Source of the DNA: Sphagnum compactum
Lineage: Eukaryota
Direction of reading: 5' to 3'
Length of the DNA stretch: 64,000 nt
Assembly (NCBI GenBank): GCA_965153455.1
Contig: OZ234493.1
Span: 13,258,213 to 13,322,212 of the forward strand
The position numbers and the translations under genes are program-made. Below the pieces are notes generated by a model, which did not search any database, was not told where the DNA came from, and saw only the letters and a list, made by a program, of their open reading frames with translations. Position 1 is the stretch's first letter. Every line of letters begins with the position of its first letter. Below are positions 6,274 to 64,000 of this stretch, in pieces.

Positions 6274-6828
6274 AAACCCTCTCGGGTTTCATAACATAAC
6301 TTCTTGCTAGTTCAGCTGCAGAGCTTGAGATTTGGTACGAAGGTGCGCCTTGTAGTCAGCTTTCCAATGAACTAAGGCAAGCTGGATTTGGATACCGTAT
6401 GTGTTAGAAACAATATTATGAGTGACTAGAGGTCTGCAGTCAAGTTGAACAACTGCCTTCGTAAAACCCTCTCGGGTTTGGTGGTATAACTCCTCACTGG
6501 TTTAACTTCAGATCTTGAGATTTGGTAGAAAGGTGCACCTTGTAGTTAGCTTTCCAATGAGGTAAGGCAAGCCGGATTTGGATACCATATGTGTTAGAAA
6601 CAATATTCTGAGTGACTAGAGGTCTGCAATCAAGTTGAACAACTGCCTTCGTAAAACCCTCTCGGGTTTGGTGGTATAACTCCTTGCTGGTTCAGCTGTA
6701 GAGCTTGAGATTTGGTAGCAATATGCGCCTAGTTGTTAGCTTTCTAATGAGCTATGGCAAGCCGAATTTAAATAACATATGTGTTAGAAAGAACATTTCA
6801 AGTGACTAGTGGTCTGCAACTATGTTGG
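6274..6828. repeat. 190-bp tandem repeat, about 2.9 copies
   Basis: AAACCCTCTCGGGTTT recurs at 6274, 6464 and 6654. Confidence 0.95.
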
Positions 6829-10083: not shown

Positions 10084-10759
10084 AAAATGAAATGTTGTAG
10101 AAGGGGCAAGTGATTTGCTTTTTAAAATTAAAACATTTGATTTTTTTAATTTAAAAAATAATAATGAGTTGTTCGGGCACCTCAAAATGTGTAGTGAATT
10201 TTAATTTGGTCATGAGTGTTTGGACCACTTAAAAAAATTAAGCAACTTTTTAAAGTTTTAAAATTCCTTTATGATGAATAAGTTTTTTAAGGTGAGATTT
10301 TGGTGATATGATTTGGGAGGGGATTGAACCCCTAAACTACCCACTACAACACAAGCCTTCTTTTGCATAGTGCAAACATACATAATATTGCACAAAACAA
10401 ATAACAAAATGAACAAACTATGGCTAGTACCTACTTGCTAAAAATTGACTTGTGGGGGAATTGAACACCTAAATTGCCTATTATAATAAAAACCACTTGC
10501 AAAATAACACACAACAAATATACTATACACAATAACAAAACTTTTTAGAATTTATTACCACTAGCAAAGAAGCAAAATTTTAATGGAGACATTAACTTTG
10601 TTAAGATCATGGAAACTAATAATCAAAAGCAAAAAATAGATCTTAAGTTACTGAAATAAAAATTATGCATCAAATCCATATATTAAGATCACATATCCTT
10701 CCAAGCTACAACTATTATGGGTATGGAAAGTTTTTCAATGTGTAAAATTGTTGAATAAA

Positions 10760-13700: not shown

Positions 13701-14050
13701 GTGGCCATGACTAATTAGCAAAAGAAAAATAAGAACAAATTGAACATTTTTTTTTTTCTTTTCAACAATTCCACCATGAACAACCAACTACAACACTATT
13801 TTAACACAAGTAGTAAAATATAGTTTATCATTAGCAACATGAACATTGGAATTCAAGAAATAATGCTCCCCATTTTTTCCCCCTAGCATTGCTACCAAAG
13901 CCTTGTGATAACCTGCATGCTTCCATAAATAATCCAATTTGAGAACTAATAACTTTTCATTACCTTGAATTTGGGTGCACAACTTGCACCAAACTTGAGC
14001 AACTTTGTAACTAAAACCCACCACAAACCTTGCCCAAACAAGTTTCATTA
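10760..14050 (-). pseudogene. Two adjacent decayed hAT-like (ZNF862-type) transposase copies
   Basis: ORF 13788-14048 (VWCKLC...KLDYLWKHAG). ORFs 13030-13263 and 11483-11806 are paralogous: LCDI..L.....LLE..N.LMK.SQ.RD.F. Heavily mutated. Confidence 0.65.
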
Positions 14051-27700: not shown

Positions 27701-30700
27701 GCCAGTCATACCCAACACACAAATAAGATATAAATGCAGAGAAAATCCCCAAATGCGTAAAGGTCACCAAAGATTCCTTTTTCTCATCTGAGGTTGCTAT
27801 GAATGAACACAGTAGACACTTTCTGACAACTTCAAATCAGCCAGGGATTTCCTGGTTTCTCCTTAAGTGAAGACCTGGACTGCTTCCAAGTCAAATATAC
27901 AGAACTAGAATGTATAGTCTCACACTCCTGAGATGAATAGTTCTGAAACAGCCCAGGTGAGCCAAAAGAGTTTACATAACCCTCATGGCCAACTATCTAA
28001 TGACAGTGGTTTCATTGAGCTGGGTTCATGAGACCTCAGACAGAATAGAGGTTTGAGCCTCAAATTCACCTCACACATATTACAGGCAAAAACATTGAAC
28101 ATGTTTTGAGCTCTGTCCAGAATCTGCAGAGGACTTGAGGTCTCTTCCAATACAATATCAGACCATACAGGCATTGCTTATTCTGCTACAGCAGCCTAGG
28201 GCATGGTCTACGGTGACAAACCCTGTTGAACTAGAATAGTAGATGCAGGGCAATTGAGAGACATTTAACTGAGGGCTACAATCTTGAACTGAATTTATAC
28301 AATGTTAACTCCAAAGTAACTCATGGAAGGTACCAAATGACCACAGCATCCTCTGATACTCCTTTCTAATCTCAAGATAATGGTGCTGAAAAACTGGCAA
28401 CTCCAAAAGGCAACAGTTGCAATGGTTTGTTTCAATGCTTACTCTCTTAGCAGAGTGTTCCGTGCTCCATCTGAACACTAAAAGACAGTGCCAGATATCT
28501 ACAAAGACCCCCTTCCTCAGAAAATATGAAAATGAAACTGCTGAAAACAGAGTAACCAACCCCTTCAGGAACACCCAATCTCAAACTCTGTTTCCTTTGG
28601 TTGGATCAGGTGTAAATTACCTTCATTAAGAGCTCTGTTTGTGCCTGGTCTTGAGGGGTACCACGAGCTAATGGTGAAGCGGCCTGCAAGGGGGAGCCCA
28701 CACCTTGAGACAAATCACTGCTTGCAGTAGACTGCCCATCCTTAGCTGTCAATCCACTTCTACTTAAGAGCATTCGTAATCGACGTGGGTCTGTATCCGA
28801 AAGAAGGGGTGAGCCAGATGAAGACATATTTCCATGAGCCTGAGCTTGGAGCAGAAGCTGCTGCTGCTGTTGGGCTGTCAACATCTGGAATTGTTGGTAC
28901 TGCTGGGGAGACTGAATGAATGGTTTTTGTGTAGAAGCCCCTAGCCCTGGCCCCTACCAATATCCCAAAAACAATGCATCACTATAACATCCATTAGCCA
29001 ACAAACCAGTGCAGAATATTATAAGAGCAATGCCATTATTAAGAGCACTGAAATCTTTTGCCATGCACTTGAGCAACAGATCAATGAACAGAACTCTCTG
29101 TGCAAACATCTCACATTTATTTCAATGATGAGAATATAGCATCTTCATAAGTCTTGAGAACTAAGAGAATATAAGTGGAAGGAAACTCACTGTAAGTGGC
29201 CATGCCTTTCCACCTTGATTCAATCCTGTAAAAACTTCAGTTGGTCATCAGCTAGCTGACTGAAGTAAATTCTAATGTTGATCATGGTAAAATGGGAATC
29301 ATTTGATGCTGCTTTACAAAGGCATCAAAGTAAGTCTCATGCAAAGAACACGCGTTGATGGTGTTCACAAACAATTGAAGCAAAAAAGCTGATGTTGGTC
29401 ATGTTAAAATGGGGATCATTTGATGCTGCTTTACAAAAGCATCACAGTAAGTCTCATGCAAAGAACATGAGCTGATGGTGTTCACAAAAAATTGAAGGAA
29501 AAAGGCTGATGTTGGTCATGTTAAAATGGGGATCATTTAATGCTGCTTTACAAAAGCACCAAAGCAAGTCTCAGGCAAGAACATGAGTTGATGGTGTTCA
29601 AGATGAATTGAAGCAAGAAGGAATGAGATGATGGACCAAGAGCACAAGATACAAACCTGGGCTATGAATAGCTGGTTTGGAATGCCCTGTTCCTGGGAGA
29701 CCAAACATAGCAGAATCTGGAGCTAGAGACCTCTGGCTCAATACGTCATTCTTGTTATCCTGAATCACCAAACACAAATGTTCAACATAAAAGCAGTTAT
29801 GATAGTTTTTTAAACAAAAAACACATCAACTACTACTTTTGTACCGAAGATAATGTGTTCAAAGTGCACCTGAGAGCTTGCTGACATCTGTTGTGGGCGA
29901 GACTGGACTTGTTGCAAGGGTGTTGCAATACCAGCTGTACCATGCAGCGAAGGCCTGTTTTCCACAGACATAAACTAAGTCAGAACAGTCTGAATTGCAT
30001 GAGGATTGCATTTATTGTCTAACTAATTGGTGCCCATCACAACCTTCACAGTTATAAGAACATTCTGAGGCCATATTAACCTCTATCACCTTCCTTGAAA
30101 TTGTCTACGCTTCCTTCAGAAAACAGGAAGTGAGAAACATGGACACAAAAATTCTACTTACAAACTCTAGGAATCACAATCACACTATACCACCCTAGAG
30201 ACCTGTTCAACCATGACTGATTATAGGACATCCCCACCTCAAATCAATTCCTCACTTGTTGTCAACATTATCATTGAGATTAACACCATAAACCGTCTAG
30301 TTCTGGAAAATGAATTCTGCATAGATACATGGCAAACTGTACATGCTCACAACTTTCCTGTCTTACACAAACTCATCCCAGAACAATGCCTCATAAGCTA
30401 TCAAAGCAAGGATCTAGACTAGCAAAGGGTTTTATGATCAGCCAAAGTTGTTTCACAACATCCTTCACTTGCAAAATGTCAACGTCTTGAGTCTTCATAC
30501 TGCCCCTTGACACTTTCTCAAAATGTGGAGTGCATTCAGGACTCAGTGCTAAATGTATTGGTCAGAGCACATCGTACCTCTGCAAAAATAAAAAAACCAC
30601 CCCACCAAATGCAACTTCAGCCACAAAACAGCAAAAATATAGTTTATAAACAGTCCCCAGCCAATTTCTAGGAGTTTCCATAGTGGGAAGAAGACAAGAA

Positions 30701-33700
30701 GGCACAAAAGGGTCTGCAGGAACATTAGCTATTGCAGCTGGAGGTGTGGTTTGGACATGCAAAAGCTACATAGCATATGTCAAGGATTTTAATTGACACT
30801 TCAGTCAAGAGATTGCTGGCTGGGACAGTGATATTAGATTGTGATGGCAATTGAGCATCACATGGGCAGTAAAGCTCATTGCACACAGTTCCAAAATGTA
30901 TTCTTAATGGCCTCTATGCATCAGATGACAAGGTTATGCCATATGCCCTGGAGATTTGCGCACTGCTATGCAATTTTTTCACAGGTTGCCAGTCAAAGCA
31001 GTCAATCACAACTGACAACAGACCCAACAAGCAGGATCAAGGATTTCGCAGCTTGTTTTCAGAATACCTTCATGGCTGTTTCATCAACTGCATCCCTTGG
31101 ATGCGGATGCTTGAGGCGTTCTTCATATATTTTTGTTGCCATTGCATTTGCTGTGGGCTGCCGCAAAAGTGCATCCCCACCTAAGCCATTTGCAGAGCCA
31201 TTTAGAAGATGACTGGCTTCTCGTCGCTGCTGCTGCTGTTGATGTTGCTGTTGTGCATGATGTTGCTGCAATAATTGCAGCTGCATTTGCTGGAGCTGTG
31301 CTGCTTGTTGCTGCTGATGCTGGTGCTGGTGCTGGTGCTGGTGCTGCTGCTGCTGTTTCTGTTGCTGTTCCCGAGCTTTCAGTTGTTGTGTCTAAGCATC
31401 ACCTCACATACAACTTGTTACAGTGGCTGAAATGATATCAAGTCTAATGCTGTTCCATAGATGACAGACACAGCTGAACTGACATATTTGTGGACCAGCC
31501 TCCCAACCAGAAGTGGTCGTCTAGTCCAAATAAACATCATTGGAAGCCCCAAATCTGAAGTTGCTCAACCTGTACCATCTACTGGTTGATATTTCTGGAG
31601 ACCTTAAGATTTGACACTAAAAACAAACAATGTTCCAGTCCAGTCAAAATGCCCAAAGGCGTTTCCTATCTGAATGTAGTTCAGATTCGGGCATGAATAC
31701 CACAAAGTTCTCATGAATCAATTGTAATTTCCAAAGAACATCCTTCGTACATGAAAGGCACCTTCAAATTCAGAAGTAATATGATCAAGAGGTTCTTAAG
31801 CAGCAGATTGCTTGGGATCTTGTGGAAGTTCCAAAAGATATCTTTCATAAGAATAGAGAAATCTCCATTGTCACGATGAACAAGAAACAGCAAGGTTAAC
31901 ACTTCCTCAGGAAGCCACAGAAAGAACCAAACTAGGGAAGACAGAACAAACAAAAAACACACACCGGTATGAACAAAAGTGCCAGTCTCACACCTGTTCA
32001 GGGACCATCAACAGTAGTATGTATGATAGTGACTTAACTACCACAACTTCCCCACTGACTTCATCAGCTCCCTACAGTGGGTAAAGGCTGGTGACAAGCA
32101 CCAACCTATGAACTGAGTTTCTGCTGCAATTCTGGAAACAATGGGAAGACTCAGCCATACTACTGGCTAGCAACAGACCACAACAAGAAGGATAAGACAA
32201 AGAAACAAAGAATGACAGAAAGGGACAAGAAAATCTAAAGGAAAGGACAAACAGGGAAAGACTATGAACAAGTGGGCTAACAAGAAGCTCCCCACTTACA
32301 AGACCCGAAGCAAAATCATTTCGAAAATGCCAAAAGCAGAAATTCCAAACAGGAATTTTTCTTTAATAAGCAACCCTCTAGTTCTCTTTAGAAGAATTTT
32401 TAAAGGGTAGGCTTTTACCTTCAGAAAGTAAAATAAGACTGACCATCTGAAAGACAAAATACTTCTTACAACTACAAAGTTTCAAGAATCTGTAAAACTG
32501 ACTATTGATAACCCCCAGCTTCGCAGTCATTGAGATATTGGAATGAACATGATGGATTCTAATCATTTCAATACCTGCATACTCTGGTTGAGAGTGTTTG
32601 TCAAAAATGTCACAGGATAAACCTTGAAGACTTTGTCCCACAGCTAGATCCAAGAAATTACAAGAGAAGCCTTTAGATGTACAATTCAACTCACAAGATG
32701 TTTTTGGGTATATGCTGCTAAAAAAAGAGTCTTGGTTAAGGTACATGAAGTTCACAAAGTCTGGAAAATCAGGAACAAACAGATCATCCACAAACCTACG
32801 AACCAGGGACAATCTATGAAGCACAACAGGACATGTGTTACTCTTCAAGAGATGCTTAATGAAATCAAACTCATAGGCAAAGAGATAGAAATTAGCCAAA
32901 TAGACTGCACAATTAGTACCCATGGGGATACCAATGCATTGTCTATAAACACCATGACCAAAACAAAGAAACAAATCGTCTAATAAGAAATCCAGCCAAG
33001 AGATCAAATCGGAAGCCTCGACAACTTTGAAGCTATGAAGATTTTCAAACAGGTTGATCTCTGCTTTATTTTTCAGCCACAAAAACCTAAAGCTCAAAGC
33101 TGTTTTTTGAACCATAAAAAACTTAAAACAATGAATCTTCAGCATCCGATTAAACACTTTGTTTATCAGAACTCTCATACAAGCTTTCAGATCCATCAGG
33201 TCAATTTTAGTGTATAGAGTTGAGAAATCAAAAGACTGCAACAGAAGTGGTGAAGCTTTATCAATTTCAGATCTCGAAAGATTAAGCTTATTTATTACCT
33301 CCACCATTGGAAGTTCCAAAAGATTGCAAATCCATTGCCTGTCCTTCTAAGAGCCCTAAGTTGGCAAGGAAATTTTACCTCAATATAGGAGGCAGCCACT
33401 TCAGAGTGTTTCTCATTAGTACGAGCAATGAAGATATCCCAGAACACTGACCACCATTCAAAGAGAAAACCACCGGGTGCATCGATAGCTGCAACACCAA
33501 AGCAACAGTTGTTAACGAGAAGCCCGTGAACAGCAATATTAGCATTCAATATAGCTGCCACCACCACCACCACCACCATAGAGGGGAGTACTGAAAGCAT
33601 ACCAACTGGATCAGATGACACTTTCCCTTCATTCAGGAAAGCCTTGGCTGATGCCTGCAGATTTCTCTTCACCAGGTAATCGTAGATGTACACATCCAGC

Positions 33701-34777
33701 CTGTAACTCAAAACAAAAATCAGCACAAATCCACACAAAGACCCAAGAAAATTCCTGTCCGCAAGACACTCAACCTTCTGAGGCACATTTATTACAACTT
33801 GTTGAAATATCTAATGCTGTAGATTCATAGCCGTTAAAGCACAATATGTTGCCCCTTCTGAACTATGAACCCCCCCTCCTCTAAAAGCAAAGTCTTTTAG
33901 CTTCTTTCTTGCATCTCTTGCAACAAGAGCACATGCAGATTCTACTCAATCTCAGGAGTAGTATGCACAATTCAGCTGGTACAGATTGCAAGCTTGACAC
34001 TTGAATCATTGGCAGGCTCTCTAAGCTCTAGGGTTTTGCTTCAGGCTCAATCCAACTACTTCCACACACAGGAGTAGTATTCCTAGCTTCTGCTCAACTA
34101 GGCTTCTTATTCAGTGCCACACCAATTCACAATCTTAAAAGAAATGACATCAGATTAACCTTCACACTTCACATACCCACTCTCTAAGTACCACAATTAG
34201 TCGCTTTAGATCATAAACGAGCTGAGGAAGTTCACTTCCACATCCCCCAGCCGCCGGGGGTAAACACCAAAAGAAAGAAAAACACCATCACAAACGCCAA
34301 AAGTTTTCACTCCAAAACGCTCCCAAAATCGTCACGGAAAATTCTCTCGCAAACTCTCTCTATCTGTCTGTCTCTCTATGTCTATCTTTTTGTCTATCTG
34401 TGTCTGTGTCTGTCTGTCTTTTTCCACTTGCAGTTACATATAGCACTCTACACAAACAACCTCAGCATCCGCGTTGCCACTCAAAATCAATCATCAGGAA
34501 TCATCAGGCATACATCCTCGATCCGATTTCTATTTCCCCTCCGCAAATCATTAAATTCAAAACCAAATAACACACACACACATACACATACATACACACA
34601 ATCTACACCAGCAAGAAACACACACAAACACAAAGCAAAGCAAAGCGCGACAAAACACATTCTAGGTGCAACAAACCGGCAGCAGAAAGGGGGAAGGGAA
34701 GGACGGAGGGGGGAAGTGGGGAATCAAGTCATCAAGAGGCTTTACATTTTATCAGCTTCCCAGTTACTCTGTGCCAT
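24780..34777 (-). CDS. LUG: LEUNIG / LEUNIG_HOMOLOG-like transcriptional corepressor (LUFS/LisH, Gln-rich, WD40)
   Basis: Exons 34777-34746 ([11 protein letters not shown]), 33700-33603 ([12 protein letters not shown]), 33488-33379 ([23 protein letters not shown]), 31391-31068 (poly-Q), several small exons (not all resolved), and WD40 exons from about 26614 down to ...[13 protein letters not shown] at 24780. LUG and LUH cannot be told apart by eye. Confidence 0.92.
29274..29620. repeat. Intronic 117-bp tandem repeat x3
   Basis: Units start at 29274, 29391 and 29508, each containing ATGTTG(A/G)TCATG(G/T)TAAAATGGG. Confidence 0.9.
31840..33307 (-). mobile_element. 5'-truncated Penelope-like retroelement in LUG intron 3
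   Basis: RT motifs [35 protein letters not shown] and FLDL. Flanked by the exact 17-bp direct repeat TGGAAGTTCCAAAAGAT at 31823-31839 and 33308-33324. Confidence 0.85.
32296..33307 (-). pseudogene. Penelope-like reverse transcriptase and thumb, one frameshift near 32430
   Basis: ORF 32378-33319. The shifted frame continues [14 protein letters not shown]...ILLRVL* to TAA at 32298-32296. No GIY-YIG domain follows. Confidence 0.8.
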
Positions 34778-35600: not shown

Positions 35601-37469
35601 AGGTTGGACTTTGCAACCTTCTTTCATCAAATAAATTTTCATCAAAAAGAGAATGCAATTATCAGTGAATGCAACAAGGTCATCCATCCACTTGTCTTAT
35701 CCAGGAGTTTTTTTTTTTCTAAATTAAAATTAAAATTTTAATATAAATTTTAAATATTTAAATTTATTTATTTAATTTTAAATTTTATTATTATTTATTA
35801 TTTTTATATGGTATCAAAAGCATAGGGTCGCATGATTTGGACAAGATGTTATATTTTCTCTTTCCTCATCAAACTTCATAATCTTGTCAATTTGTGCTTT
35901 ACATGGTTTTGCACAAAATTACGTAGTTCTTATTTTGACATTATGCACAAAATATGATCTTTTTGGATTTTTCATGGGATTTGAACCCACCACAAGGAAA
36001 TAGGATCTAGTTATTACCACTATCCTACTATTTATTTTTTTTGATGTTTCGAACAAGTGTATCCAATTTTGAATATAATAATTTAAACTTTTTAAGTTAT
36101 TAGTCAAACCTTGCAAAAACACTAAGCACGGCATTTTGCACTAAACTTTATCTAACGTTTTTTTTAACACCTTGCAAATTTCAATTAGCTGGGTGTTTAG
36201 TGTCTTGCATGACTTGGGAGAGGGTTATAGTATTATGGTCACATCCAAATAACCAAAAATACAAACAAACACATATCTTAATATATAGGTTTTCTATTTT
36301 GAAAGCATTCAAAGTTCTTGTTAGTTTGAATAAGAGATAGAGCCAATACATAATTTTTAATGTTAGGCAAGGGTATTAACAAATTATTTTTAAACCATTA
36401 TTTTCATGCAACCAATGAAAAGGTTCAACATGCACTCAAACAACCCCATTTTTATCCCATATACTTTGGCAAAAGTTGAATTTATGTATATATATATATA
36501 TATATATATATAAATTAAAAAAAGTTGGGCCAAAGGGAAGCACCTCTTTGCTTCTACTTTTGGGAGTGCACACTATTTTTTAAAAGTAGTGATGGGCCAA
36601 TCAAAGTTGTTGTTTTTCTCTCTTTTGTTTGCCTGACATGGTTTGAAGAAAATTATTTTTCTTCAGAATTTTTGGAACTATTATAGTTCTTGTAAATGTG
36701 GACCTAAAATTCATGATTTTATTTTTTTTCAAATTTTAGTTGTTGTATCATTGCATGGAGAAAAATTTTCTGATATAAAAATAAATATGTCTATATCATG
36801 GAAAGCAACACTAAATAAACAAGGTATGAAAATTTTTAATTTCACAAAAATGGTGATAAAAAATGTCAACATTTTGCATGAATGCAAAGAATCTAGAGAT
36901 GTGGATAGATTGTTGAGAGGTTCAATGATAGGTGAATTTTATTGATGATGAAAATAAAAATTCAATAAGAAACACCCCTTTATATAGAAGAACTACAAAA
37001 TACAATTGAAAAATATATTGAGAAAATAACAATTCAAAATAACACTACACAACATAAATAAAAACTTGAACAACTATAAATAAAATACCTATTACGTAAT
37101 ACAAGCTCTAATGCATATGTCATTGAAATAACAAAAAAATTTAAATCAATGAAAAATATTAAACAAATAGAACCAAATGAAACAAATGACATGAACATCA
37201 TAAATGAGATTCAAAATAATATAAAACAATGGAATCATGGTTTAAATTGTTTACAAAATCAAACACCCACTGAATCAACAACAAAAAAATTACAATCATA
37301 TACAAATACAAATCATAAACACCTTGATTACAATTCCAACAACCTAAATTACGAAACATGTACCATTGGTTGACATAAAACAATCAAATGATTCACATAT
37401 CAATGTGAAAAATATAACTTTTTTTATGAAGACATTAATTCACCCACATCAATTGAAAGATCCATTAAA

Positions 37470-38090
37470 GAAATGTATGAATTGAATGAATTACAAATTC
37501 ATGCATCTGACACATTCATACAAATAAATTCCAAAAACAAAATTACAATATGTTGGTGGTGTTGCAAGAATAAGAAAAACACAAATCATTAAAGCCATTC
37601 AAAAATGTTATATAAAAACAAAGATTGAAAATTTTTTTTGTATTGCAACATATATAGGAAATGGAGCATTGTTAGTAGGTGGGATTACTATCCATTCTTT
37701 ATTGGGCTTATGTCATTGTAAGTAAATCAAACTCAATAATAGACATTTGGCCAACTATTAAATATATGATTATCAATGAAATTTCAATGGTCGGCTACAA
37801 CATGCTTGTTACAATGCATTTGAAGTTGCAAAAATTGAAATTTAAACATATTACCATTTGGTGGGATAAACATAATGTTTATGGGAGATTTCTTACAATT
37901 TCCAAGCATAACCGACACATTGTTATATTCAAAAAATGTTCAACCAATCTTTGCATCCACAATATTACAAAAAAATTATAAGAAAAAGTTTATGGGAAAA
38001 TTACATTCATCTTAATAACATCATATTAATAGAACAAATGCAATAGAGCAAAAACACACAATATGCATCAATTTTAGAAAATCTTAGATT
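37470..38090 (+). pseudogene. Highly decayed PIF1-like helicase (old Helitron-type remnant)
   Basis: Degenerate YVGG.A...KTQIIKAI, ATY.GN.ALLVGG.TIHS, YMIINEISMV and PFGGINIMFMGDFLQ read across frameshifts. Confidence 0.7.
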
Positions 38091-39059
38091 AGTAAAATTA
38101 CAAATTTAAATTTCGAATGATTTAAAATATGATTTTTTTTCCAATTTGAAATTAAATTTATTTGAAGATCCATGGAGGATAACAACCTTCATAGTTCTTT
38201 GAAAGGAACCACGCAATGCCATCAACCATCACATAATTAATATTAAATCAAAAATATTAAAACAAAAATGTTACACAATTTTAGCCATGGACATTTCATT
38301 AGTAGAAAACCACTTCTCTTCCAATTGTGGGCTCAACTTGTTTTCAACTATAATTATATTGAAAACGACTTTTCAACTACAAATTAGTTTTTTCAATTAG
38401 TTACCACAAGACTTGACAAATATAAATTGAGCTTGAAATTACAATCCACAATTATGGCCACGTGTCAACATCCTGCCAGTAACGAGACACAAACATTTTA
38501 GTTGAAAATGATCTTGAACATTATAGTCAACAATTATTTTCAACTATTCAAATTGATGTTTGTTTCTTTTTCAGGTTTTGCAATGTTGCTACTAAATTTG
38601 CAATCAATAATGAGAATATCTAATTAACTATCACTAATGTAGTAGGTAATGTAAATTTCCATGTTGAAAAAATGAATAATTATTTTTTTAAATGAAAATT
38701 TGATTCATATTTTTAAATATTGTTATTTCATGATTTATAGTACTTTACCAAGATATTGTCATATACAAATAGTGAAATTATTTATAATATAACTTGTTGT
38801 AGTTACGAAAGTTTCAACAATTCCATCCATCCATTCTTCATTTTATTTTATTTCTTATTTCATGGTCAACAACAATCTACCAAGATATTGTCATATACAA
38901 AGAGGGATATTATTTATAGAGGGTACCCGTGACCTTCGGACACTGTGAACTCCCCCAGTTTCATTAAATCATATTTATTTCAAAGAAACATTCTGTTTTA
39001 AACAACTGCACGTCGTGAACGTAGCTTCTCGCGGAGCCATTTAGGAGATGCATGCAGCC

Positions 39060-42000
39060 TCAAAGGAGGGCTTCTTCGTACACAACATTGCGCATAAGGC
39101 CACTCCGACCATGCACAGTGTCTGGCAGCTGAACTTTGATGTTCGCTGGTGCCTTGGCGCGTGAAAAGGCAACGTAAAGTTGGCCATGCGAAAAACTGTC
39201 ATCTGCGAGATGAAGGCCAACATGAGAAAGGGTCCGCCCTTGAGACTTGTTAATAGTCATGGGATAAGCCAACTGCAAAGGAAGGTGCTTCCTTGCAAAT
39301 GTAAATGGCAAACCGCTGTTATCGGAAATGAACTTAATGCGCGGGATAAAGGCCACATTACCGGCCCCTTTTCCTGTGATGATCTCAACCTCAACGATTC
39401 GCATCGTGAAGCGTCGAACAATCAGGCTACACAGCCCAACCAATGGGTCAAAATTGCGCAGCAGAATCACTGGTGCGCCAATCTTGAGCAGCAGCTTGTG
39501 TGAAGGCATGCCACTAACTTCCAAAGTGTTAAGAAACTCGGAAGGGTATGTGTTCGCCACTTCCGTATCATCTGCGGAATCCGCACTGAGGAAGTTGACT
39601 TGTGCGCCTGAAAGGTAGCTTAAAACCATCGCGTTTATTAACGAAACCTCCTTGTTGCGAGGAGCCAAAATCGCACGCTCATGCAAATATTCGTTTGTGG
39701 CCTGGCCCTCGTGTAGTCGAGGGTAGATGGCCACAACCATGGCTTGTGTGTCCGCAGGAGGGAGTACCATCATGTCTGGACGCTTGATGTAGTCCTCATC
39801 GATGGTTTCTAGTTCGTTGTTGCTAAGACAAAGAAGCCAGTCTGCAAAAGTGCGATTCCCAAGATCAGTGTGAACAACAACAGCATCGCTGGCCCGCATA
39901 TTTTCCGAAAGACGGAATACCTCAACAGATTCCCATAGGTAGGAGTTTTTTATTGATGCAGAGACAATGTCTGCATGGGATCCCCGGGGGATGACTGGAA
40001 GGACTTGGCGAAAGTCCCCTGACATGACGAAAACAATGCCACCAAAGGGTTCGTTCCTGTCTGTAAGGTCACGCAGAGTTCGATCCACCGCTTCAAAAGC
40101 GAGCTTATTAGTCATAGGAGCTTCATCCCAAAGGATGAGCTTTGTTTGACGGATTAGCACCGCTAAATCATCCTGCTTACGAATATAACAGAAGGACGTA
40201 CGGTCAAACGCGATCGGGATCTTCAGGTATGAATGGGCCGTTTGCCCTCCTGAAAGCAGAAGCGCAGCAATGCCTGAAGAGGCGACAACAAGTGCAATAT
40301 TGCCACGCGAACGCACAGCGTTCAAAATCAAGTTTTCGATGTAGGTCTTACCCGTTCCACCAGGGCCATCGATAAAGATGACTTTAGCGTGATGGGCAGC
40401 ATATGCATCGATTACGCCATTGTAGGTTGCACGTTGCCCATCATTGAGGCTCTCAATGGCCATAACCACCTCGGTTTGCAAGACCTCGACATTGTAGTTG
40501 CGCTCCACCTCAAGCAGGCGATTGGTCTCTAATCGATCAAAGGCAACAGATGGGGTAGGAAGGCCAAAATCCTCGAGAGTTTTGCTAAATTTGGCAAGCG
40601 CATCCCGTAAGGAATGCAGTGCCCAACTCTCAATTTGCTCGATGGACGGTTCCACTATACCGCAACGTTGCAATGCTACCTTGCAGTCATCGCAAATGTG
40701 CTCCTTGTACTTGTCCCAGAGCATGCACGGCTCACTTGGAATGCCAAAGGCCAAGATGGTCACAAACAAAGACCGCAACTGTGCACCTGTTCGCATGCCA
40801 ACTGCTTCTTCCAAGCAGGCATTCCACTCGTCATCCGAGTCATAAAAACCAAGTGCAATGCATGTTGATTTGAATGTGTCATGGACAACACCATTAATTG
40901 TGCGAAGAGCTTAAAAAGAAACAGCACCTTTGACCTTCGTTAACAATGTACGCAAGAAATAACGTTCGCCAACGAAAGGACTGACGAAATAAAGGCGCCC
41001 GACACAACACCCTTTCTGCCGGATGGTCCATTTTTTCGTCCCATTGGTCCATGTAAACACGGAGGGAAAATCCATGTACGTGACTTCTCTGGCCAAGGGG
41101 TAATCAATATTGGCTTGGAAGTATTTGGTGAGCGTTGTTTTTTGGTTTTGCTCGCTATTAATAGTTTCAAAAATACTGGCATTATCATTGTACACGACCG
41201 TATGCATTCCAGGCTCGTGCACGGCAAGGCGTGTGACAGACGGTGTCCCGTCATGCATTCTAAAAGAGAAAAGACGCCATGATGCCTCGGAAGCAGAGAC
41301 ATAGCGTCCTTCAAGGTATGCTTTAATTTCATCGCGGTTTTGCCACTCACCATTGGCAATGACCGCCTGTGCGTTGTTATCCTGGCCAGGCATATTCGCT
41401 CGCCTTTCGACAACGGCAGTAGCACGGTCAGGTCCCTTGTACACATACTTGTACAGGTACTTGACGGCAGATATGGACGAACATATCTCCACGTTGATGT
41501 GCGCGTGGTACTTGGTTGCCAGGTGAAGATTATACGGGACAATCCACTGGTTATCCACCACGCGTTGCGTCTTTGGATCTACAAAAATGCGGGTTTGACG
41601 GCGCCGATACTCGGGGTACCCGTCAACATCACAACGCGTTTCTTCGCTAAAAGAACGCGGGTACCTTTTCTTGCACTTTCCTTGCTCCATGCATTGTGCA
41701 TTGAAAAAATCTGGACCACATGGCCCATGCACCATGCACGAAGTGATCGTCTCATACGCCTTAGGATGGCATATCGGGTCCGGAATCTCGGCCGATACCA
41801 TCGAATCGTAGTCCTCGGCGGTGCGCAATTTCGACACTTCATCTAAAATGAGCAAAATGTGCGCGTGGGGCAAGCCTCTTTTTTGAAACTCGATGACCTA
41901 AATTTTAGCAATCACATTGCCAAGAACAACGTTTTTAATGTCCTTCAAAAGGGCGTCAAGTTTCAAATTAAAAACGTGAGTTACTAAATTAGGGCGATCC

Positions 42001-43498
42001 TTGGCAGTTTGCCCCGGGAGAAGTGCATCTGTAATCTCTTTCCATTTAGGATTACAGGTAAATGTGACAAAAAGGTCCGGCCTACCAAATTTGTGGACCC
42101 TAGCCATGGCATCCTGGTACAGTTGGCCCATGGCGCGCTCACCGCCCTGGAATGACGACGAAAGAATCATCTTCTACCCGATGTCGTTCCCAAAAACGTC
42201 GCCAGCATTCAATGCATCTTGAAGACCATTGTACAGGTCGCAACGTAGTTGTCGCTGGTTCTCGCGAATAACTTCAAGCGGTTTTGTTCAGTACATGCAT
42301 ATGCGTCAACAATGAATTGCTGTAAAAGCCTTCCGGCTCGCAGAATCCATTCCTCGTTGATGCGATGTTGTAGTATGTACGCGTAAAACTGAAGCATGGT
42401 GACGCGTGCGGAACCGCGTTTACCACCTATTGCATTCTCGTCATCTTGGATGAACGCAGAGCCATCCCATTGAAATCCATTCAATGGGATGCCGTCATGC
42501 CATCCGTTGCGTCCATCTGGGAAGAGAAGGACGTAGTGCAGTGGCGCGTATGCACTGTGTAGGGGAGACACGCGCTGAAAATAGCCATTAGTCGAACGAA
42601 TGACAATGTCGCGTGCGTTTGCTTCATCCACATCGCCCCCAACCATTAATGCGTTAACTTCGTCAGGAGTTGGCGCATTGTAACGCTGCAAATCAGTGCG
42701 GCGATCATTCAGCAAACGAAGACTTAGCTCAACAGCCCCGCCTTGGAGTCATTCCATGGCCGTTTGGTAGATGCTGGCATAGGGGTTACATTCATGCAGC
42801 ATCGTTTGCAACGACTGCATAATGTCCCTGTTCAGGCCGCCAAAATTGCCCATTCGGCCATCAAGCTCGGCATGTGGATCGCTAATGTATAGCTGGGAGA
42901 ATTTTGGCGCCTCGCCAGGCTGAGGAAGTAAACTCCCCATCCTATGGTAAAGCTCACCGCGAAGACGGTAAGTATAGTTGCCAGGTTGGGCAACATTGGT
43001 ATCCAGGTTGGCCCCCATAGACGTGAAGGCCAACGCATTGTAGTAAGAGCGAATGCGCTGACGAAAGTCTTTTGCATCTGCTTCGTTACTTGTAAGGAGC
43101 CACCTGAGCGGTTCTGGTGGGGGTGCCAACGGGGGCAGCGTCACTTTACCTTGTGCGCAACACGGTGTAAACTACGGATTGGCACGCGAACTTGATGCAA
43201 CACGCTCCTCCAAAAAGTGTAGGGCGCCGCACTTGCCACACATTGTGGTCATTTCACCTAAAGTGTGGCGAAGACCATGATGGTTGCCGTCAAATTCACG
43301 GCGCGCCAAAAGGATCACTTGGTTCCCACCTTGGTTTGTGCGATCTAGTTCACGCTGGGCACTAACGTGCCCTTTGACCTTCCCATCGGCTAGCATCCGC
43401 TGCACGCTGCTCCTTAGATCGAGCACCGTGCCTCTCTCGGGCAAGATAGTTCCGGCGGACGCGCGTGCCTTCCAAAGGGGACTCTTCTTCCTCTTCAT
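39060..43498 (-). pseudogene. Helitron Rep/helicase (HUH Rep + PIF1 helicase) broken by several stops and frameshifts
   Basis: Consecutive ORFs 43172-43498, 42749-43144, 42209-42715, 41898-42170, 40911-41873 and 39060-40814. Motifs DLFVTFTCNPKW, GLPHAHIL, KYLYKYVYKG, GPGGTGKT, WDEAPM, GDFRQ, TINKSQG and HGQLYVAFSR. Confidence 0.95.
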
Positions 43499-43805
43499 TC
43501 ATTGGTTTAATTATAAAGCATCAGAAGTTACTTTTGAAAATCTGTAACACCTTCTGCATCCAAAAGCACAATTTCCAATAGGATGATAATACCTAAGCAA
43601 AAAAGATGATCTGTTGCAGACTCTTGGCTTAATCAAAAAGCCTAAAGAGAAAATCCTATCTAGAAAAAGGATCCTCATAATTTCAGGAGGCTTCTGGTCT
43701 TAGAGAGTCTCATTCAGCTTTGTCCTCCATGTCTAGATGGCTCAGCTCACTTCACAACCCCTTGGCAACACTTTGGCACAAATCAAACAGGTGTTGAAGA
43801 CAGAC

Positions 43806-44841
43806 CTTGGTCTTTGGTGCACGATGAGCCATGAGGGCAGCTGTTGCATTGCCAGCATTGTTCTCCTCAATGAATCTTATAGTAGAGTTCACAATCAGCA
43901 AGAATAGGATCCCCAAAAAATCCTCCCAATCTGGTGGCTGGCCCTGGATATGTATTTCGCACAAAACTGTAATCAAAGCCAAAAATGAAGAAGACAGGAG
44001 AAAAGACAAACAAAACAAACAAAACAAAACCAATGATAACATCAAAGCAAGAACCAAATAAAAAAGATAGATCACCATACTTGTCCATTGGCCAACACAA
44101 TAGCCATCAGTGCGGCAACTTCCATAACCCATGACATGGGTTCCACATGAAACCCAGAAACTTGAGGAACTTGTTTTCCTGCATAAAAGCATTAAGAAGA
44201 GTCACAAAAATCTCAGCACAGAAGCCTGATCCAGACTATGTCTCAGAAAAAATTCCCAAAGAATCAAAGCAGGAAGGGAAAAAGATAGCAAATCTGCAGA
44301 AGAAAAATAAAAGAGTAAAGATGTCACTCTAACTACACTCATGGGAAGTTGGTGTACAACCAACAATTGATGTCCCTCAACTTCAATGGTTCTGCAATTG
44401 GGTTAGTGGAGATATTATGATTCTACCATTCTGAAATAAAATTGACCAAGGCAAAGATTTTGAAGATTCTAAGAATCTTTTCAAATAAAACCCACTGTTT
44501 AAGGATGGCATCATAGCACAAACCGTTTGGGGATTATCTGTTACCCCCAAAATTTCCTGAATTTGTAGTCAGAAATTATGCAATGCAATGGTGAAATTAC
44601 TAAGGAGAAATCTTGACATCTTGGATCATCTCCTTGAAGCTTCTTCTATATGCCCAGATATCCCTCTGGAAAAAAAACAAAAGTTGAAGTGGCAAAAGAA
44701 GGAAGAATTCGTAGACTATACCACTTTTTCCTTAAGCTTGTTGGAGCCAAAGATGGCAAGGCAGTTGTTTCCTTCATCTGTGGTGAGACCTTCCTTTGTA
44801 CATCTCAGCTGCTCAAACACCTCCTCGATCGGGATGTTTTC
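43806..44841 (-). pseudogene. AHA: Captured plasma-membrane H+-ATPase fragment (3 exons with introns)
   Basis: Exons 44841-44722 ([20 protein letters not shown]...FGSNKL), 44178-44081 ([31 protein letters not shown], 1-nt deletion) and 43943-43806 ([10 protein letters not shown]...[10 protein letters not shown]...APKTK). GT-AG borders. Confidence 0.92.
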
Positions 44842-45244
44842 CTGTTCCCCGTCCCCAATTGAAGTTTAATAAAAACATCCCATACCCACACACAAACACA
44901 CACACACACACACACACACTCTCTCTCTCCAATCTTATTTTACTATCTGCAAGTGTGTTGTATTGTATGTCATAATCCTAGCTCTCTGAGCTCATTGAGT
45001 CAGCCAGGTAGTATATTCTGTTGCTTCTTTTCCATTGTCTTCTCGTTTCTTTATGTCCCCATCTCTCTTCTGTTTCTCTTTCTTCTGTTCTTTCTCTCTC
45101 GTTGTCTCTCATATTCATCATTTCTTGTCACATGACCATACACCCACGCTCCTATTCAAAGCTACCAACATCAAAACCAAGAACGCACTTCCATAGTGAA
45201 GGAGGGACCGGATCCAAACGAAAGACCAAATCTGAGCTCCAAAA

Positions 45245-45540
45245 ATCAGCAGCAAGAGTTGCCATTTCCTTGGCAGCTGATGTATGGGGTACTAACATCA
45301 TTGTTGTTAGTGCGGCCCCAAGACCTACACCTGCTGCCACAGCCTTGATCCCCTGCATTCTGTTGAACTGGTTTAGACCTGGCTGTAGAATGTTGAACAA
45401 CACCCATCCAAGTGCTGGAACCAATGGCAGAAGCAGTGCAAATCCTCTGCTATCATCTCCTGCCAAGGCCATCTATTGTTGTGATGTGATGGCAGAATCC
45501 GGCATTGTCATTGCCGTGAACATTGCACCTGCAGTAGTAG
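45245..45540 (-). pseudogene. psbY: Captured nuclear PsbY (photosystem II) fragment
   Basis: DSRGFALLLPLVPALGWVLFNILQPGLNQFNRM. In-frame TAG just upstream; breaks off before the second PsbY unit. Confidence 0.88.
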
Positions 45541-45729
45541 AATTTTTAGAGCCAATTCTATCTGAATGCACGTAAACCGGTATAGGGGGAATCGGTAGTT
45601 TACATTGAAGAATATTCTGCCTGGGCATCCCAGGAACATATTCTAAAGTCACGGAAAATCATTTAATTAACTTTGCCCCAAAATTGATATCGAAACCAAA
45701 ACAATGTTTTCCAAAATTAATTCTCGAAT

Positions 45730-46089
45730 CTAGATCTTAATGGTATTATCCATACCACAGCTGGTTATCTTAAGAATGTCTGATGGATGAAAGTCCTGTT
45801 CAAGTCCACCAAGTTATGTACAGAAGATCAGCATGGAAACTCAACACTCCCGTTATTCTAACAAAAAGCCTCTTAGTAAGAACTATTCTGACCTGAAATG
45901 CAACCCCTGTAGACACCAGAAATTACCCCAGCAAAGAATCAGTGGCCTTGACAAATAAGAGAGGCTACTGTCATGAGAACAAAGAACAGCACTAACCACG
46001 CTGAGTATTTCATTACGGTGGCCACCAGCCCCAGCAAATATAAGTATACATACACCTGTGTTCACATTCCATAGTCTCACAGACTCGTC
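45730..46089 (-). pseudogene. FIE: Captured FIE/EED (PRC2 WD40 subunit) fragment, 2 exons
   Basis: 46089-45997 [31 protein letters not shown]; 45795-45730 DFHPSDILKITSCGMDNTIKI* (expected Trp codon is TAG). Confidence 0.9.
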
Positions 46090-46343
46090 CTGCAATATCC
46101 AATCCAGGCACAACAATGAGATTTCTAAGAAAAGAGTGCAGGAGGGTTGTTCTGGAATGAACATGTATCTGTAGACAATCCTTGCAATTGTGGCCTGATG
46201 CTCACTCTTCTATCACAGCAGCTGCTGTAAAACATCAAGATTAGAGGTTTGTACTCTGACACGTAGACTTACAAAATGGAGAAATGGTCCCACCAATGAG
46301 TGGAAAGTGGCTAAAAACTACATTCCATAGTCTCACAGACTCG

Positions 46344-46687
46344 CAAGATTGTGAGCAAAATTGAGGCAGGGGAACGGTTTGCCGTCTATGTTGTGGTACC
46401 AATGTGGCTTGAAGGTGTGCCTGATAGTGGGTCTGTTCAGGCTATCCTTGACTGGCAGAGGCGCACGATGGAAATGATGTACAAAGAGATTGCAAATGCT
46501 TTGAATGCACAGCAAATTGAGGATCAAAGCCCAAAAGATTATCTGACCTTTTTCTGCCTAGGAAACCGGGAGACGAAGATAGAGGGTGAGTATGTGCCTA
46601 AACAAAGCCCAGAAGATAACAGCCACTACAAAAATGCGCAGGACAACCGCCGCTTCATGATCTATGTGCATGCCAAGATGATGATTG
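46344..46687 (+). pseudogene. PLD: Captured phospholipase D (alpha-like) exon fragment
   Basis: [43 protein letters not shown]...[11 protein letters not shown]...[13 protein letters not shown], ending at a GT donor at 46688. Confidence 0.93.
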
Positions 46688-49600
46688 GTGAGAGACTTGA
46701 ATGTCTATTTTCCAGCTTTTCAACTGCGTTTCCACTCTAGAAGGGCAGGAAGATGTCTTAAAAAATTTCATTTTCTGCAGTCTGGAATCGACTCTTTGGT
46801 TGATAGACTACCGTATACTCATGGAAAGCTCAAGTGGGTTAGTCTTTCATAGTTTGTTACTCAAAGAGAAATTTCAAACTTGGAAGCTAGTCCTGGAAGG
46901 GAGTTGATCATCTGGAAGACTAACCCACTCTTCTTTGAACTCCACTGCCACCACTTCCCTCCAGGCGCTTCCACGTACTGCCTTAAAGTTGTTCATCTCT
47001 TACTTTTGAGCTCCTTTGGTGTGACGATCCCCCATAAGATGTCTCCTCTCTTCGGCAGTTTCGGACTGGTACGTTTCTTCTTCGTGCCTCCATTTGGTTT
47101 CTGTTGTTGCTGGCCCTCCATCGCTCGCTCTGCTAAATTCCTGCAGACCACACAAAAACAATTTCGCAGTGCTAAAACAAACTGCGCTAGTAGGATCACA
47201 TGAACATGTGGATAAATTGCTGCCGCCGCCATGAGTCGTCGTCCTCCTCCCGTTCCATCATCATCTTCTTCCGAGATGAGGAACTTGGATGGATGGATGA
47301 CGGGACGGATGGAAAGGACGACCACCCAAGGATATTATATAAGTAGATATGGCTTATTGTAGTTAAACAAATTTCAACACTTCCATGCATCCATCCATCC
47401 ATTCATCCATATGATGATGAATGATCTTTCTTTTTGTAACAGGAACTAGTTGGTTGTTGTTTCATACATTATGTTTTCATAGATTACCAACATTCATTAT
47501 GTTGTCACCATGGAGGGATGAATGAAATTGGACGGATGGATGATGTTTGATAGATTAGTACAACATAATGTCATCACCATGTGTGGATGAATATTATTTT
47601 CATTGGAAGATGAATCATGTTTGGTATAATATCAAAACATCTACATCTTCACTATGAACAGATGGATGAAATTTGGATGGATGCATGATGTAAACAATAC
47701 GTCATCATCATGAATGGATGACGAATGGATGGATGGGTGGGTTAACCTAAACCTAACTTTTTTGAACCCTAATAATAATAACGAGAGTTACTACCACTGC
47801 CATCCCCATCGCAAGGTCCAATAAAAGCCCATTTGTCATTGGGGTTTCCTCTCGAACAATTTTCCTTTGTTTATGTTGTTGCAGTGGTGGTTGTAATCTA
47901 CCTTTTGTTTCCAACTTTCTACCTCCTCTTTCAATGTTTCCAATCGTCTATTTTCTAGCCCTTTTGTGAGTTGTCAACTCATTGAGATCCTTGTTTTTGG
48001 AGTCATGTTTCGCTTTTGATGCCTTTTCCAATCTCACGAACGGGAGGACACTTGCAGATGAATAGACCTCCATTGTTTTCACCACCTTGTTGTTCCTCAC
48101 CACCTCACCGAGCTTCACCATTCAATATTCTTTCATTTACTTCTCCCTTTCTCCTACAACTTCATTTTTTACTTTGAATTTATTAAGCAAAGTTTTAGAA
48201 TTGCGAGTCGAGGTTGGATTCCAACATCAAGGGCACCAAGCCTACTATAAAGAAAGGATTTCAGCTATCTTTCGTTTGCTTTGTGTGTTCTTTGTGGGTT
48301 TTTTCAAAATGTATTTGTAACTTACGATTCAAAAAGCTTTCTCCATAAGGTTGATCAGGCATGGAAATTTGGAGATTACTACTTCGTTTGTACATTCAGA
48401 TTTTCAGATAAAGTAGCAAGAACTCCATTGGGGTGTAGACATGTCAAAAACTAACCATATTGGCGGATTGCAGTTTGTTTTTCTCTTGTCACTTGGAATT
48501 GTTTGATGGTAAGGATGTCAATGTTTTGCTTTTGCTATTTGCAAGATGTGTATGTCTTTATTGGTAGAGAGGTCTTCATCAAGACATGCTTAGGTTTTGT
48601 GACATCTAACACAATGGGCTGACCACTTGACTGATTTTCATTTTTGTTGTAGTAGGAGATTGGGGTGCTGTTGACCGAAACTCGAATGATGTAGGTATCA
48701 TCATACTTTTTCAAATCAATTAGTGTCTGATTTAGTTAGCCTCTTGCATTTCATCTGTTCTGGTAACCAAAAAGACAAACAAAAAGGCCATGATCTTATT
48801 TTTCAACTAGTCAACGTGTAAGCTGGCCATGCTCATTTCATTCTCCATAATAATTTTTAGTCTTTCAACCTTCTCGTCCAAATTATGTGCATCGAAATTG
48901 AAAGCTTTTGTAGAGCTCAACAAACTATAACACAAAGTTATGTCATGCCAAATGACAATTGTGAAGTTGTATATGTTATAGTTTTTTTGTAGCCTAACAA
49001 ACTGGACGTTAAAAAGTTGAACCTAACCTAATATTAGTAACCCTGGGTGTATGTTGTAACTAACTTAGTCAGGGTAGGTGTCACCAAGGACCATGTGGGC
49101 ACTTGGAATGCTGGTTGGCCTATTACAATGGTTAAAAAGTGACCACCTTCAAAATGGAGGTAGGAGACCTATAGGGTGAAGAGTTGATAAGTCATGTTTA
49201 GTTGGCACAATAAACATTTCCCTTTTTTTGTTGTTCAATGTACAAGTAAGCCCACTAGCACACAACCTTTCTGTATGTATGTTGCATCTTTAGATTATCA
49301 TAGTGAAACAATTAATAGTATTTTTCCTCCTAATGTTTGTGCATTAACTCTTATGTTTATCCAATTTGTCATTCAAATTTATTCTTAGCATGGTGGTTAG
49401 TAGACAATCCAATTATTGAGGTGATAGAGATGCTTGGAAAGACGCGAGTGTGTTGAATTCCAATGTTGAGTACCAAAATGACACAATTAATACTTTTTTT
49501 GTTTTTAAAATATTGGAACAAGTTTTGCATTTTGTTTCCATTTAGTAAATGTAGAGCTCTATCATGTTGTAGAGACTGAACATGTAAATGTATAGGTCTA

Positions 49601-50439
49601 TCCAATTGCATCCAAAATGTTTGAACATAGGTATAAGATCAAATAATGGTTGAAAAAACATGATGATCTTTTAGTACACACCATTTGTTTGTACTTTGGT
49701 TTCCAGTTTTCTAGGATACCCCAATGAATTCAAGTTGTTTAGTTCTTCAATCTGCCAATGCACTTGAGACATGCATAAATGTGGAAGAAATAAACATTTA
49801 GTTTCCCAAGTGGAAACCTCTAATTAATAGTTAATGTTTCAAAACAAACTAGCCCTATCTATTTAATAGTGTATTGTTGTTTGACCATAATTGATTCTCT
49901 TGTAGATTGCTTAAGCATGCAAGAAAACCAACAACATAATTGATACTTGAAAATAAGTAAGTAACTATTGTTGGAAGGAAGTGGAATGAAATAGATCACA
50001 ACATTTGATTAGAGGGATCAAATACATATGACCTTGAGTACATAGTATCCTAGCCCAACTAGGGTTGTTGGTGTGCCTTGATTGTAGGTTGATTTTATTG
50101 TGTGGCAGACCAGAAAGGCTATCCCAAGCATTTTAACATCAATTTCATTCTTAGTTGGCAGTGACATTTTTTTTGTGTTACCTATTTATTCATTTTATTC
50201 ATGTTCTTTTGTTTCCATTTGTGTTTGTTTTTGTTTTGATTTCTTGAACCTTAAGGTCATGGTTTTAATTCACTTGCATTTAGGAACTCATGATTGCTTA
50301 TTATGAAAGCAAGATGCAGACAACAAGAAAATTGATATGAAGTTTCTAGCAGTGTAATAACAACAACGATGTCTAAGGCATTAAGGCATGCAATTGTCTT
50401 GTGCCATTACCAATTATTTTGTATTTTTAAACTTGTGAT

Positions 50440-63884: not shown

Positions 63885-64000
63885 CTGTCAGGGTAATGCA
63901 AATTTCAATTGGACGCAAGGAACTAACTCCAGGCTGGCCAATCACTGATGTACAATAGGCATGATCAGAGAGCATGTCAAAGAATGTGCTCCGCTTTTCT

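Follow-up and report, generated by a model that had tools for sequence, protein, structure and literature searches.

A decayed RepHel-bearing Helitron of the moss Sphagnum compactum with pieces of host genes behind its 5′ end

Introduction

Most records of host gene capture by Helitrons come from maize, bats and some fungi, and how it happens is still under debate. Morgante et al. and Lai et al., both in 2005, are said to have described non-autonomous maize Helitrons with gene fragments. Here we analyse a Helitron in a stretch of 64,000 nucleotides (nt) of Sphagnum compactum (assembly GCA_965153455.1, contig OZ234493.1, positions 13,258,213 to 13,322,212 of the forward strand), which is called the window below and to which all coordinates refer. 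The element bears a gene for the Helitron protein RepHel and, upstream of it, pieces of genes for phospholipase D (PLD), FIE, PsbY and a plasma-membrane H+-ATPase.

The closest described systems are presented here as far as the consulted parts of the cited articles describe them. In maize, the putative autonomous Helitrons ZmhelA1 and ZmhelB2 carry eight and two gene fragments, respectively, and stepwise capture and loss of internal sequence have been described (Dong et al., 2011; PMC3288121). Across 404 genomes, 20 domains were captured by autonomous Helitron-like families (HELIANO; PMC11417382). The same source describes HelenSM92 of Sphagnum magellanicum, an HLE2 (Helentron-type) family with short terminal inverted repeats and TT sites, most copies of which contain a GIY-YIG domain (PMC11417382).

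The element of Sphagnum compactum resembles ZmhelA1 and ZmhelB2 in combining RepHel with several host gene fragments, in their apparently stepwise accumulation and in internal loss (PMC3288121). Unlike ZmhelA1, it resides in a moss, its RepHel is a pseudogene, and the order of capture is deduced from the nesting of breakpoints in sister copies (PMC3288121); its own cargo lies entirely upstream of RepHel. With the non-autonomous gene-fragment Helitrons of maize it shares multiple unrelated fragments, retained introns, a 5′ TC and a 3′ CTRR, but those maize elements lack RepHel (see also PMC2575219). Like families reported with HELIANO, it is of autonomous type with extra captured sequence, which lies upstream of RepHel in some of those families, one family being from Sphagnum; unlike HelenSM92, it belongs to an HLE1 family (TC...CTAG, inserted between A and T) whose cargo consists of pseudogenic fragments that vary between copies (PMC11417382). 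Bat Helibat/Helraiser is likewise a canonical Helitron family that captures and mobilizes host gene fragments; in the bat accounts cited, capture is linked to the 3′ end with the hairpin that serves as terminator (PMC4224331; PMC4778049), whereas the cargo of the present element follows the 5′ end and any 3′ hairpin would be weak.

Results

Boundaries, insertion site and class of the element

The comparisons reported here indicate that the minus strand from 47347 to 38917 is very probably a single, complete and decayed canonical Helitron (HLE1) of autonomous type, belonging to a multi-copy moss family whose cargo region turns over, and that the H+-ATPase piece was gained first, PsbY next, and PLD and FIE last. 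An earlier note, made from the sequence of the window alone, had proposed a fully delimited Helitron at this position, with pieces of the four host genes captured at the DNA level upstream of a near full-length RepHel. The region 36001-50000 of the window was compared by BLASTN with 80 sister loci. A search of metagenome contigs for relatives of the N-terminal RepHel open reading frame (ORF) 42749-43171 (140 aa) gave 160, of which these were the best 80, at 76-95% amino-acid identity. Grouped by the identity of their longest match, 38 loci stand at 91.5% or above and 42 at about 84-90% (the ~89% group or subfamily).

The 5′ end is the TC at 47347-47346 on the minus strand, which reads TCTACTT and is preceded by A. 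The 5′ terminus beginning with TCTACTTATATAATATCC marks the start of homology in L014, L020, L026, L060 and L004, whose upstream flanks are all unrelated, and A directly precedes TC in five of six copies, that of the window included. Matches to the conserved 5′ terminal region extend over 35 nt in L060 and 22 nt in L004. At the opposite end, homology stops exactly at 38917 in 11 loci (L009, L010, L011, L014, L028, L036, L045, L047, L048, L057 and L063). The 3′ ends of these loci read ...CCCTCTAG, also read as ...GGGTACCCTCTAG, and their last four bases are CTAG, which gives the family the CTRR end of Helitrons. T follows CTAG in five distinct 3′ flanks (L009, L014, L028/L036, L045 and L063), while in five further loci, all of the ~89% group, a conserved sequence starting with G, not T, follows the 3′ end. 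One sister element, in L014 (5433..13839), is complete with both ends on a single contig. When the 60-nt ends of the window element were searched with blastn-short, the two outer termini were found together with a 13-nt chance match at 4457, and no second copy of either terminus was found inside the element. Canonical Helitrons have a subterminal hairpin about 10-20 nt from the 3′ end; in this part of the window element only an imperfect palindrome, GTGTCC-GAA-GGTCAC, and the palindrome GGGTACCC can be seen by eye.

The window element sits between A (47348) and T (38916), and its flanks are parts of a local AT-rich repeat (38704-38786 against 38837-38918, 79.5% identity). When the two flanks were joined and aligned to the neighbouring unit of this repeat (38690-38850), no duplicated bases and only a 3-nt gap across the junction were found; the neighbouring unit contains none of the four cargo pieces. 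The uninterrupted target site deduced from the flanks of the element consists of ...AAGCCATA directly followed by TAAATAAT..., and the Helitron would have been inserted between the A and the T of this AT-rich repeat. The delimitation proposed in the earlier note is borne out by the recurrence of both termini in sisters and by the match of the joined flanks to the neighbouring unit. Insertion between A and T, a TC start and the absence of both a target-site duplication and terminal inverted repeats place the element among the canonical Helitrons (HLE1). The short terminal inverted repeats and T/T insertion of Helentrons (HLE2) were not found in this element, which has TC...CTAG with A and T flanks; the sole inverted repeat close to a terminus lies in GGATGG repeats and straddles the boundary of the element.

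On each side a TATA(A)ATAATATCC-like string was noted and considered as a target-site duplication of 12-14 nt. This reading was rejected because the left-hand string belongs to the 5′ terminus conserved in all copies, and the clean joining of the flanks against the neighbouring repeat unit also counters it. Low-G+C blocks (25-31%) at 2001-14000 and 36001-38900 of the window adjoin regions of 40-49% G+C, and the Helitron lies at the edge of such a block, within a local repeat of about 133 nt. A possible PIF1-like remnant in the AT-rich block at 37392-37981 was discarded, as it gave no Pfam match and no tblastn match with the RepHel protein P0002 (see below) at E 1e-3.

RepHel is full-length but a pseudogene

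The ATG-led RepHel frame runs from 43498 to a stop at 39060. Pfam scans detected Helitron_like_N (PF14214) in three consecutive ORF pieces (best E 2.2e-28), and PIF1 (PF05970, E 1.8e-71) together with Pif1_2B (PF21530) in the 616-aa ORF 39060-40910. The Rep HUH motif (GLPHAHILL), the YxxxY motif (YLYKYVYKG) and the PIF1 Walker A motif (GPGGTGKT) are readable in the translations; the product is an HUH Rep fused to a PIF1-type SF1B helicase, the canonical Helitron protein. The closest full-length protein in a collection of 5.8 billion proteins was a 1460-aa RepHel of Kalanchoe (P0002), and tblastn matched residues 16-1459 of this protein at 43471..39066, with 52% identity over residues 426-1459 and 43% over residues 16-430. 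The near full length stated in the earlier note is borne out by this extent (residues 16-1459 of 1460), but the gene is a pseudogene, with four in-frame stops (TAG 43172, TGA 42749, TAG 41898 and TAA 40911) and one frameshift near 42263-42278. The uninterrupted RepHel that characterizes an autonomous (active) Helitron is thus absent from the window copy. None of the 80 sister loci contains an intact RepHel ORF; the longest ORF, of 976 aa, extends to the end of its contig. Between the stop of RepHel and the 3′ end of the window element there are 143 nt, which are free of cargo.

The H+-ATPase and PsbY pieces are shared with sister copies

The coordinates of all features are collected in Table 1. 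Pfam scans of the cargo were run ORF by ORF. The exon blocks of the H+-ATPase piece are spaced by non-coding stretches of about 540 and about 140 nt. Exon 2 was found in 27 of the 80 loci and exon 3 in 24, all within the group at 91.5% or above, and the ~89% subfamily (42 loci) lacks both exons. Single alignments span the ATPase piece through RepHel in L029 (44713..39264, 94.6%) and L063 (44521..38917, 94.1%). The piece lies inside elements with distinct flanks (L009/L020, L014, L028/L036, L045 and L063). It is thus present at different insertion sites, demonstrating that it was carried along when the element transposed. L014, L017, L028, L033, L036 and L076 have in common a deletion of 406 nt (window 44061-43655), which takes out ATPase exon 3 and marks a sub-lineage.

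PsbY was found in two of the 80 loci, L009 and L020, which are 99% alike, overlap and represent one element. The stretch 45389-45245 of the window is common to these loci, where PsbY runs on into its second domain. The L009/L020 element retains 370 nt of PsbY that are gone from the window copy, and the window retains PsbY sequence upstream of 45389 that is gone from L009/L020. These reciprocal losses indicate that the capture of PsbY is older than both copies.

The PLD and FIE pieces are private to the window copy

Similarity to L020 is interrupted between sharp breakpoints (Table 1), and the intervening segment, which holds the PLD and FIE pieces, is private to the window copy. The plus-strand ORF 46315-46740 matched plant PLD alpha 1 (6kz8) over residues 552-668 (E 1.8e-49), and 111 of 116 residues (96%) are identical to residues 552-667 of an 810-aa PLD (P0123); a donor-like GT stands right after the last matched PLD codon. 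For the ORF 45883-46209, all 106 of 106 matches were FIE/EED proteins, the best named one being a Sphagnum FIE (P0250, 94%). In the tblastn match, identity amounts to 30 of 32 residues in one FIE exon and 20 of 21 in the other, with an intron of ~200 nt between them. Directly adjacent to the PLD piece, 24 nt from the start of the FIE exon are repeated without a mismatch, and the ACTCG at the PLD/FIE junction, read against residues 548-556 of P0123, can be assigned to either side. PLD was found in none of the 80 sister loci, and neither was FIE; these two pieces may have been added in place.

The FIE piece and the ATPase piece keep introns, and the PLD exon is followed by an intron stub, demonstrating that genomic DNA was copied, not cDNA, which agrees with the DNA-level capture claimed in the earlier note. 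The identities and coordinates that this note gave for the four pieces were likewise confirmed by Pfam, structure and tblastn matches, and, as judged from sequence similarity, the four identifications are far beyond chance. Its reading of all four as Helitron cargo stands in part when sister copies are compared: the same fragment inside the termini at different sites, the mark of a gene-capturing Helitron, was found for ATPase and PsbY, which moved with the element, but not for PLD and FIE (0/80 loci each).

The segment between the private block and the 5′ terminal region (46950-47206) was considered as a fifth host fragment and rejected: the ORF 46993-47334 gave no Pfam family and matched just short ORFs from sister 5′ ends. 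These matches comprise 75 short predicted proteins (42-188 aa) in a representative library, mostly over the first 50 residues, implying that the 5′ terminus is far commoner in public data than RepHel.

Turnover of the region behind the 5′ end among sister copies

The points at which sister copies rejoin the window are nested and sharp: 45389 in L020/L009, 44762 in L060, 44713 in L014 and L029, 44548 in L026 and 44225 in L034/L035. L060 retains only the last part of ATPase exon 1, and the span from the 5′ end to RepHel varies from about 1.2 to 5.3 kb among six copies. Where the window has PLD, FIE and PsbY, L014 and L029 carry a fragment of a cytokinin dehydrogenase gene (PF09265, E 5e-6). The presence of different cargo behind the same 5′ end implies that the 5′-proximal region turns over. 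A 382-aa antisense ORF in the L020 cargo gave no Pfam family and no usable match in the protein collection.

The cytokinin dehydrogenase fragment lies at L014:5576-8878 and L029:1-2468 and is partly duplicated internally. Directly upstream of the Helitron copy in L034 (1406-3219), and also in L035, there is a hAT-type gene (DUF659; dimerisation-like C-terminus by eye), which may be a nested hAT insertion or reflect a truncation. In five ~89% copies (L010, L011, L047, L048 and L057), a conserved sequence resembling a Helitron 5′ region follows the CTAG end, and L011 and L057 have a second 3′-end-like stretch about 750-850 nt downstream, which may be a head-to-tail or multi-terminus arrangement. 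A 5′-terminus-like sequence was also seen right after a truncated RepHel in L015 (2686-2784) and L049 (1824-1903), and inverted upstream of RepHel in L073 (901-1185); these arrangements suggest nested or rearranged copies.

Table 1. Coordinates of the Helitron, its parts and its target repeat in the window
Feature	Coordinates	Strand	Basis or remark
Complete canonical Helitron, 8,431 bp	38917..47347	-	both termini common to sisters with unrelated flanks; joined flanks align to neighbouring repeat unit
Conserved 5′ terminal region, begins TCTACTTATATAATATCC	47207..47347	-	common to L014/L020/L026, ~141 nt, 86-89% identity
Internal segment, no host gene identified	46950..47206	-	257 nt common to L020 only, plus inverted in L073
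Segment private to window copy, holds PLD and FIE	45390..46949	-	L020 similarity ends at 46950 and resumes at 45389, sharp breakpoints
PLD alpha exon fragment, antisense to RepHel, then GTGAGA intron-like sequence	46339..46686	+	PDB 6kz8; P0123
Exact 24-nt copy of FIE exon start, abutting PLD piece	46320..46343		direct repeat of 46064-46087
FIE (WD40 subunit of Polycomb repressive complex 2, PRC2) fragment	45733..46092	-	exon 46092-45997 (residues 164-195), intron 45996-45796, exon 45795-45733 (residues 196-216)
PsbY fragment: first PsbY domain and linker, cut at start of second domain	45245..45529	-	PF06298, E 5.1e-14, 52.3 bits
Plasma-membrane H+-ATPase fragment, both introns retained	43806..44844	-	three exon blocks against AHA2 (5ksd)
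ATPase exon 1	about 44844-44725	-	AHA2 residues 3-42, E 1.9e-11
ATPase exon 2, one frameshift	about 44180-44079	-	AHA2 residues 43-76, matched as 43-60 and 50-76 in two frames
ATPase exon 3	about 43940-43806	-	AHA2 residues about 77-124; match over 64-124, E 1.8e-18
RepHel pseudogene	39066..43498	-	Pfam, ORF translations, tblastn with P0002
3′ terminal region, ...GTGTCCGAAGGTCACGGGTACCCTCTA; CTAG in sisters	38917..38976	-	comparison with sister ends
Neighbouring unit of AT-rich target repeat, paralogous empty site	38690..38850	-	joined flanks align, score 148

Other features of the window

A Ty3-type retrotransposon gag (PF03732, PF19259) followed by an ORF that appears chromodomain-like by eye lies at 791-1673 on the plus strand. 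The minus strand at 25200-33810 carries a multi-exon host gene, judged LEUNIG-like by eye, with an N-terminal LisH motif (PF08513), WD40 repeats at the C-terminal end and stretches rich in Q; within it, the 322-aa ORF 32378-33346 gave no Pfam match. At 62298-63887, also on the minus strand, there is an open frame of 529 aa with an OST-HTH/LOTUS domain (PF12872).

Discussion

We propose that this family keeps RepHel and the 3′ end constant while the cargo region behind the conserved 5′ terminus turns over, fresh host DNA entering shortly downstream of the 5′ end and often taking the place of older cargo. A genomic H+-ATPase piece (exons 1-3 with their introns), carried by one whole subfamily at different sites, would have come first. 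The PsbY piece, common to one other element, would have come next, and the antisense PLD-alpha exon and the two-exon FIE piece of the window copy last, either shortly before the copy last transposed or in situ at a later time. Entry probably occurred through the copying of ectopic templates during repair or replication, of the filler-DNA or template-switch type, at a break or a stalled replication intermediate behind the 5′ end. Such template copying is favoured over transduction past a missed terminus because the pieces are 0.1-1.1 kb long, come from unrelated genes, stand in both orientations and replace older sequence instead of being simply added. Template switching is supported, although not proven, by the FIE patch of 24 nt and by the few bases that the two sides of the PLD junction share. 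It is conceivable, although we lean somewhat against it, that the stretch behind the 5′ terminus is a preferred entry point at which microhomology-guided template switching overwrites older cargo, so that the sister copies would form a time series of captures in a RepHel-bearing lineage. The cargo itself appears to have no function for the element, all pieces being fragments and the ATPase piece frameshifted.

Three other explanations were weighed. The PLD and FIE block (46949-45390) could have been inserted in place in an immobile, decayed copy, by break repair with filler DNA, or could be an assembly chimera, leaving ATPase and PsbY alone as strict Helitron cargo. This is unlikely, if far from negligible. 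The absence of PLD and of FIE from all 80 loci fits it, as do the dead RepHel of the window copy and the 976-aa limit on ORF length among the sisters, and the 24-nt patch and the ACTCG overlap are traces that break repair leaves anywhere in the genome. However, independent replacements at the same region in at least four other copies (L014/L029, L020, L026 and L060) point to a property of the element and not to chance, mobilization in trans is possible despite a dead RepHel, and gross misassembly is opposed by the location of both breakpoints within sequence otherwise collinear with L020.

The cargo might instead have been gained by read-through of an end, flanking host DNA being transduced when a terminus was missed, without internal template switching. 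End bypass is the best-documented route of Helitron capture according to the consulted part of PMC4778049, and five loci of the ~89% group (L059, L061, L071, L072 and L075) diverge 17 nt before the 3′ end, as bypass would give. Yet the cargo is confined to the space between a conserved 5′ terminus and RepHel, with none after the RepHel stop, four pieces of four unrelated genes, one of them inverted, are beyond a single flanking transduction, and a new 5′ end would not be identical across copies; we therefore regard this route as improbable. Even less credible is a pair of elements standing head to tail, in which a non-autonomous cargo Helitron (47347 to about 43500) abuts a RepHel-bearing Helitron. 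The tandem or multi-terminus arrangements seen in L010, L011, L047, L048 and L057, including the second 3′-end-like stretch of L011 and L057, suggest that the family can be arranged in this manner, but no 3′- or 5′-terminus-like sequence was found between 43400 and 47200, single sister alignments cross from the cargo to RepHel unbroken, and L004, of the other subfamily, has the same 5′ end 1.8 kb upstream of RepHel.

Several observations weigh against a single complete Helitron with a cargo region that turns over. The 80 loci stem from a handful of metagenome samples, so that independent copies are overcounted, one element having been assembled repeatedly in the case of L010/L011, L028/L036, L034/L035, L047/L048 and L009/L020, and their host species may differ from that of the window. 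Only about a dozen of the 80 extend upstream far enough to inform on PLD and FIE. These two pieces are seen in this assembly only, and a local misassembly or an insertion in place after transposition may account for them. The junction microhomology and the per-fragment divergence were read from protein only. At the termini, the 5′ end of L026 has T before TC instead of A, and in the window copy T comes right after ...CCCTCTA, so that the last G of the CTAG of the family is absent. The last 70 nt, folded as DNA, gave no significantly stable 3′ hairpin: the minimum free energy was -4.7 kcal/mol (z 0.21), and shuffled sequences did as well in 116 of 200 cases.

The suggestion in the earlier note that multi-gene cargo in such an element may be undescribed was too strong. 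As far as the consulted parts of the two articles go, RepHel-bearing maize Helitrons with several fragments and stepwise capture are already described in PMC3288121, and the suggestion is further weakened by the domain capture of autonomous Helitron-like families, including the Sphagnum magellanicum example, in PMC11417382. A canonical Helitron of a bryophyte with host-gene-fragment cargo was not found described in the literature searches made here, the supplementary tables of PMC3288121 and PMC11417382 lying outside the search. The window element is a well-delimited yet ordinary case of known Helitron behaviour, and it leaves current knowledge of what Helitrons do unchanged.

For annotators, the PLD-, FIE-, PsbY- and H+-ATPase-like matches at this locus are to be treated as transposon cargo, not as genes. 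The abundance of the 5′ terminus over RepHel is what would be expected if many non-autonomous derivatives exist. The moss family is useful in that many copies have both termini and RepHel in common and differ by nested replacements with host fragments downstream of the 5′ terminus, which allows a comparison of junctions across copies and a separate dating of the parent gene of each fragment. If the stretch behind the 5′ terminus is indeed a preferred entry point, the sequences of the family would directly attest gene capture by Helitrons through filler DNA or template switching, a route other than bypass of the 3′ end, and would form the first such capture series outside seed plants.

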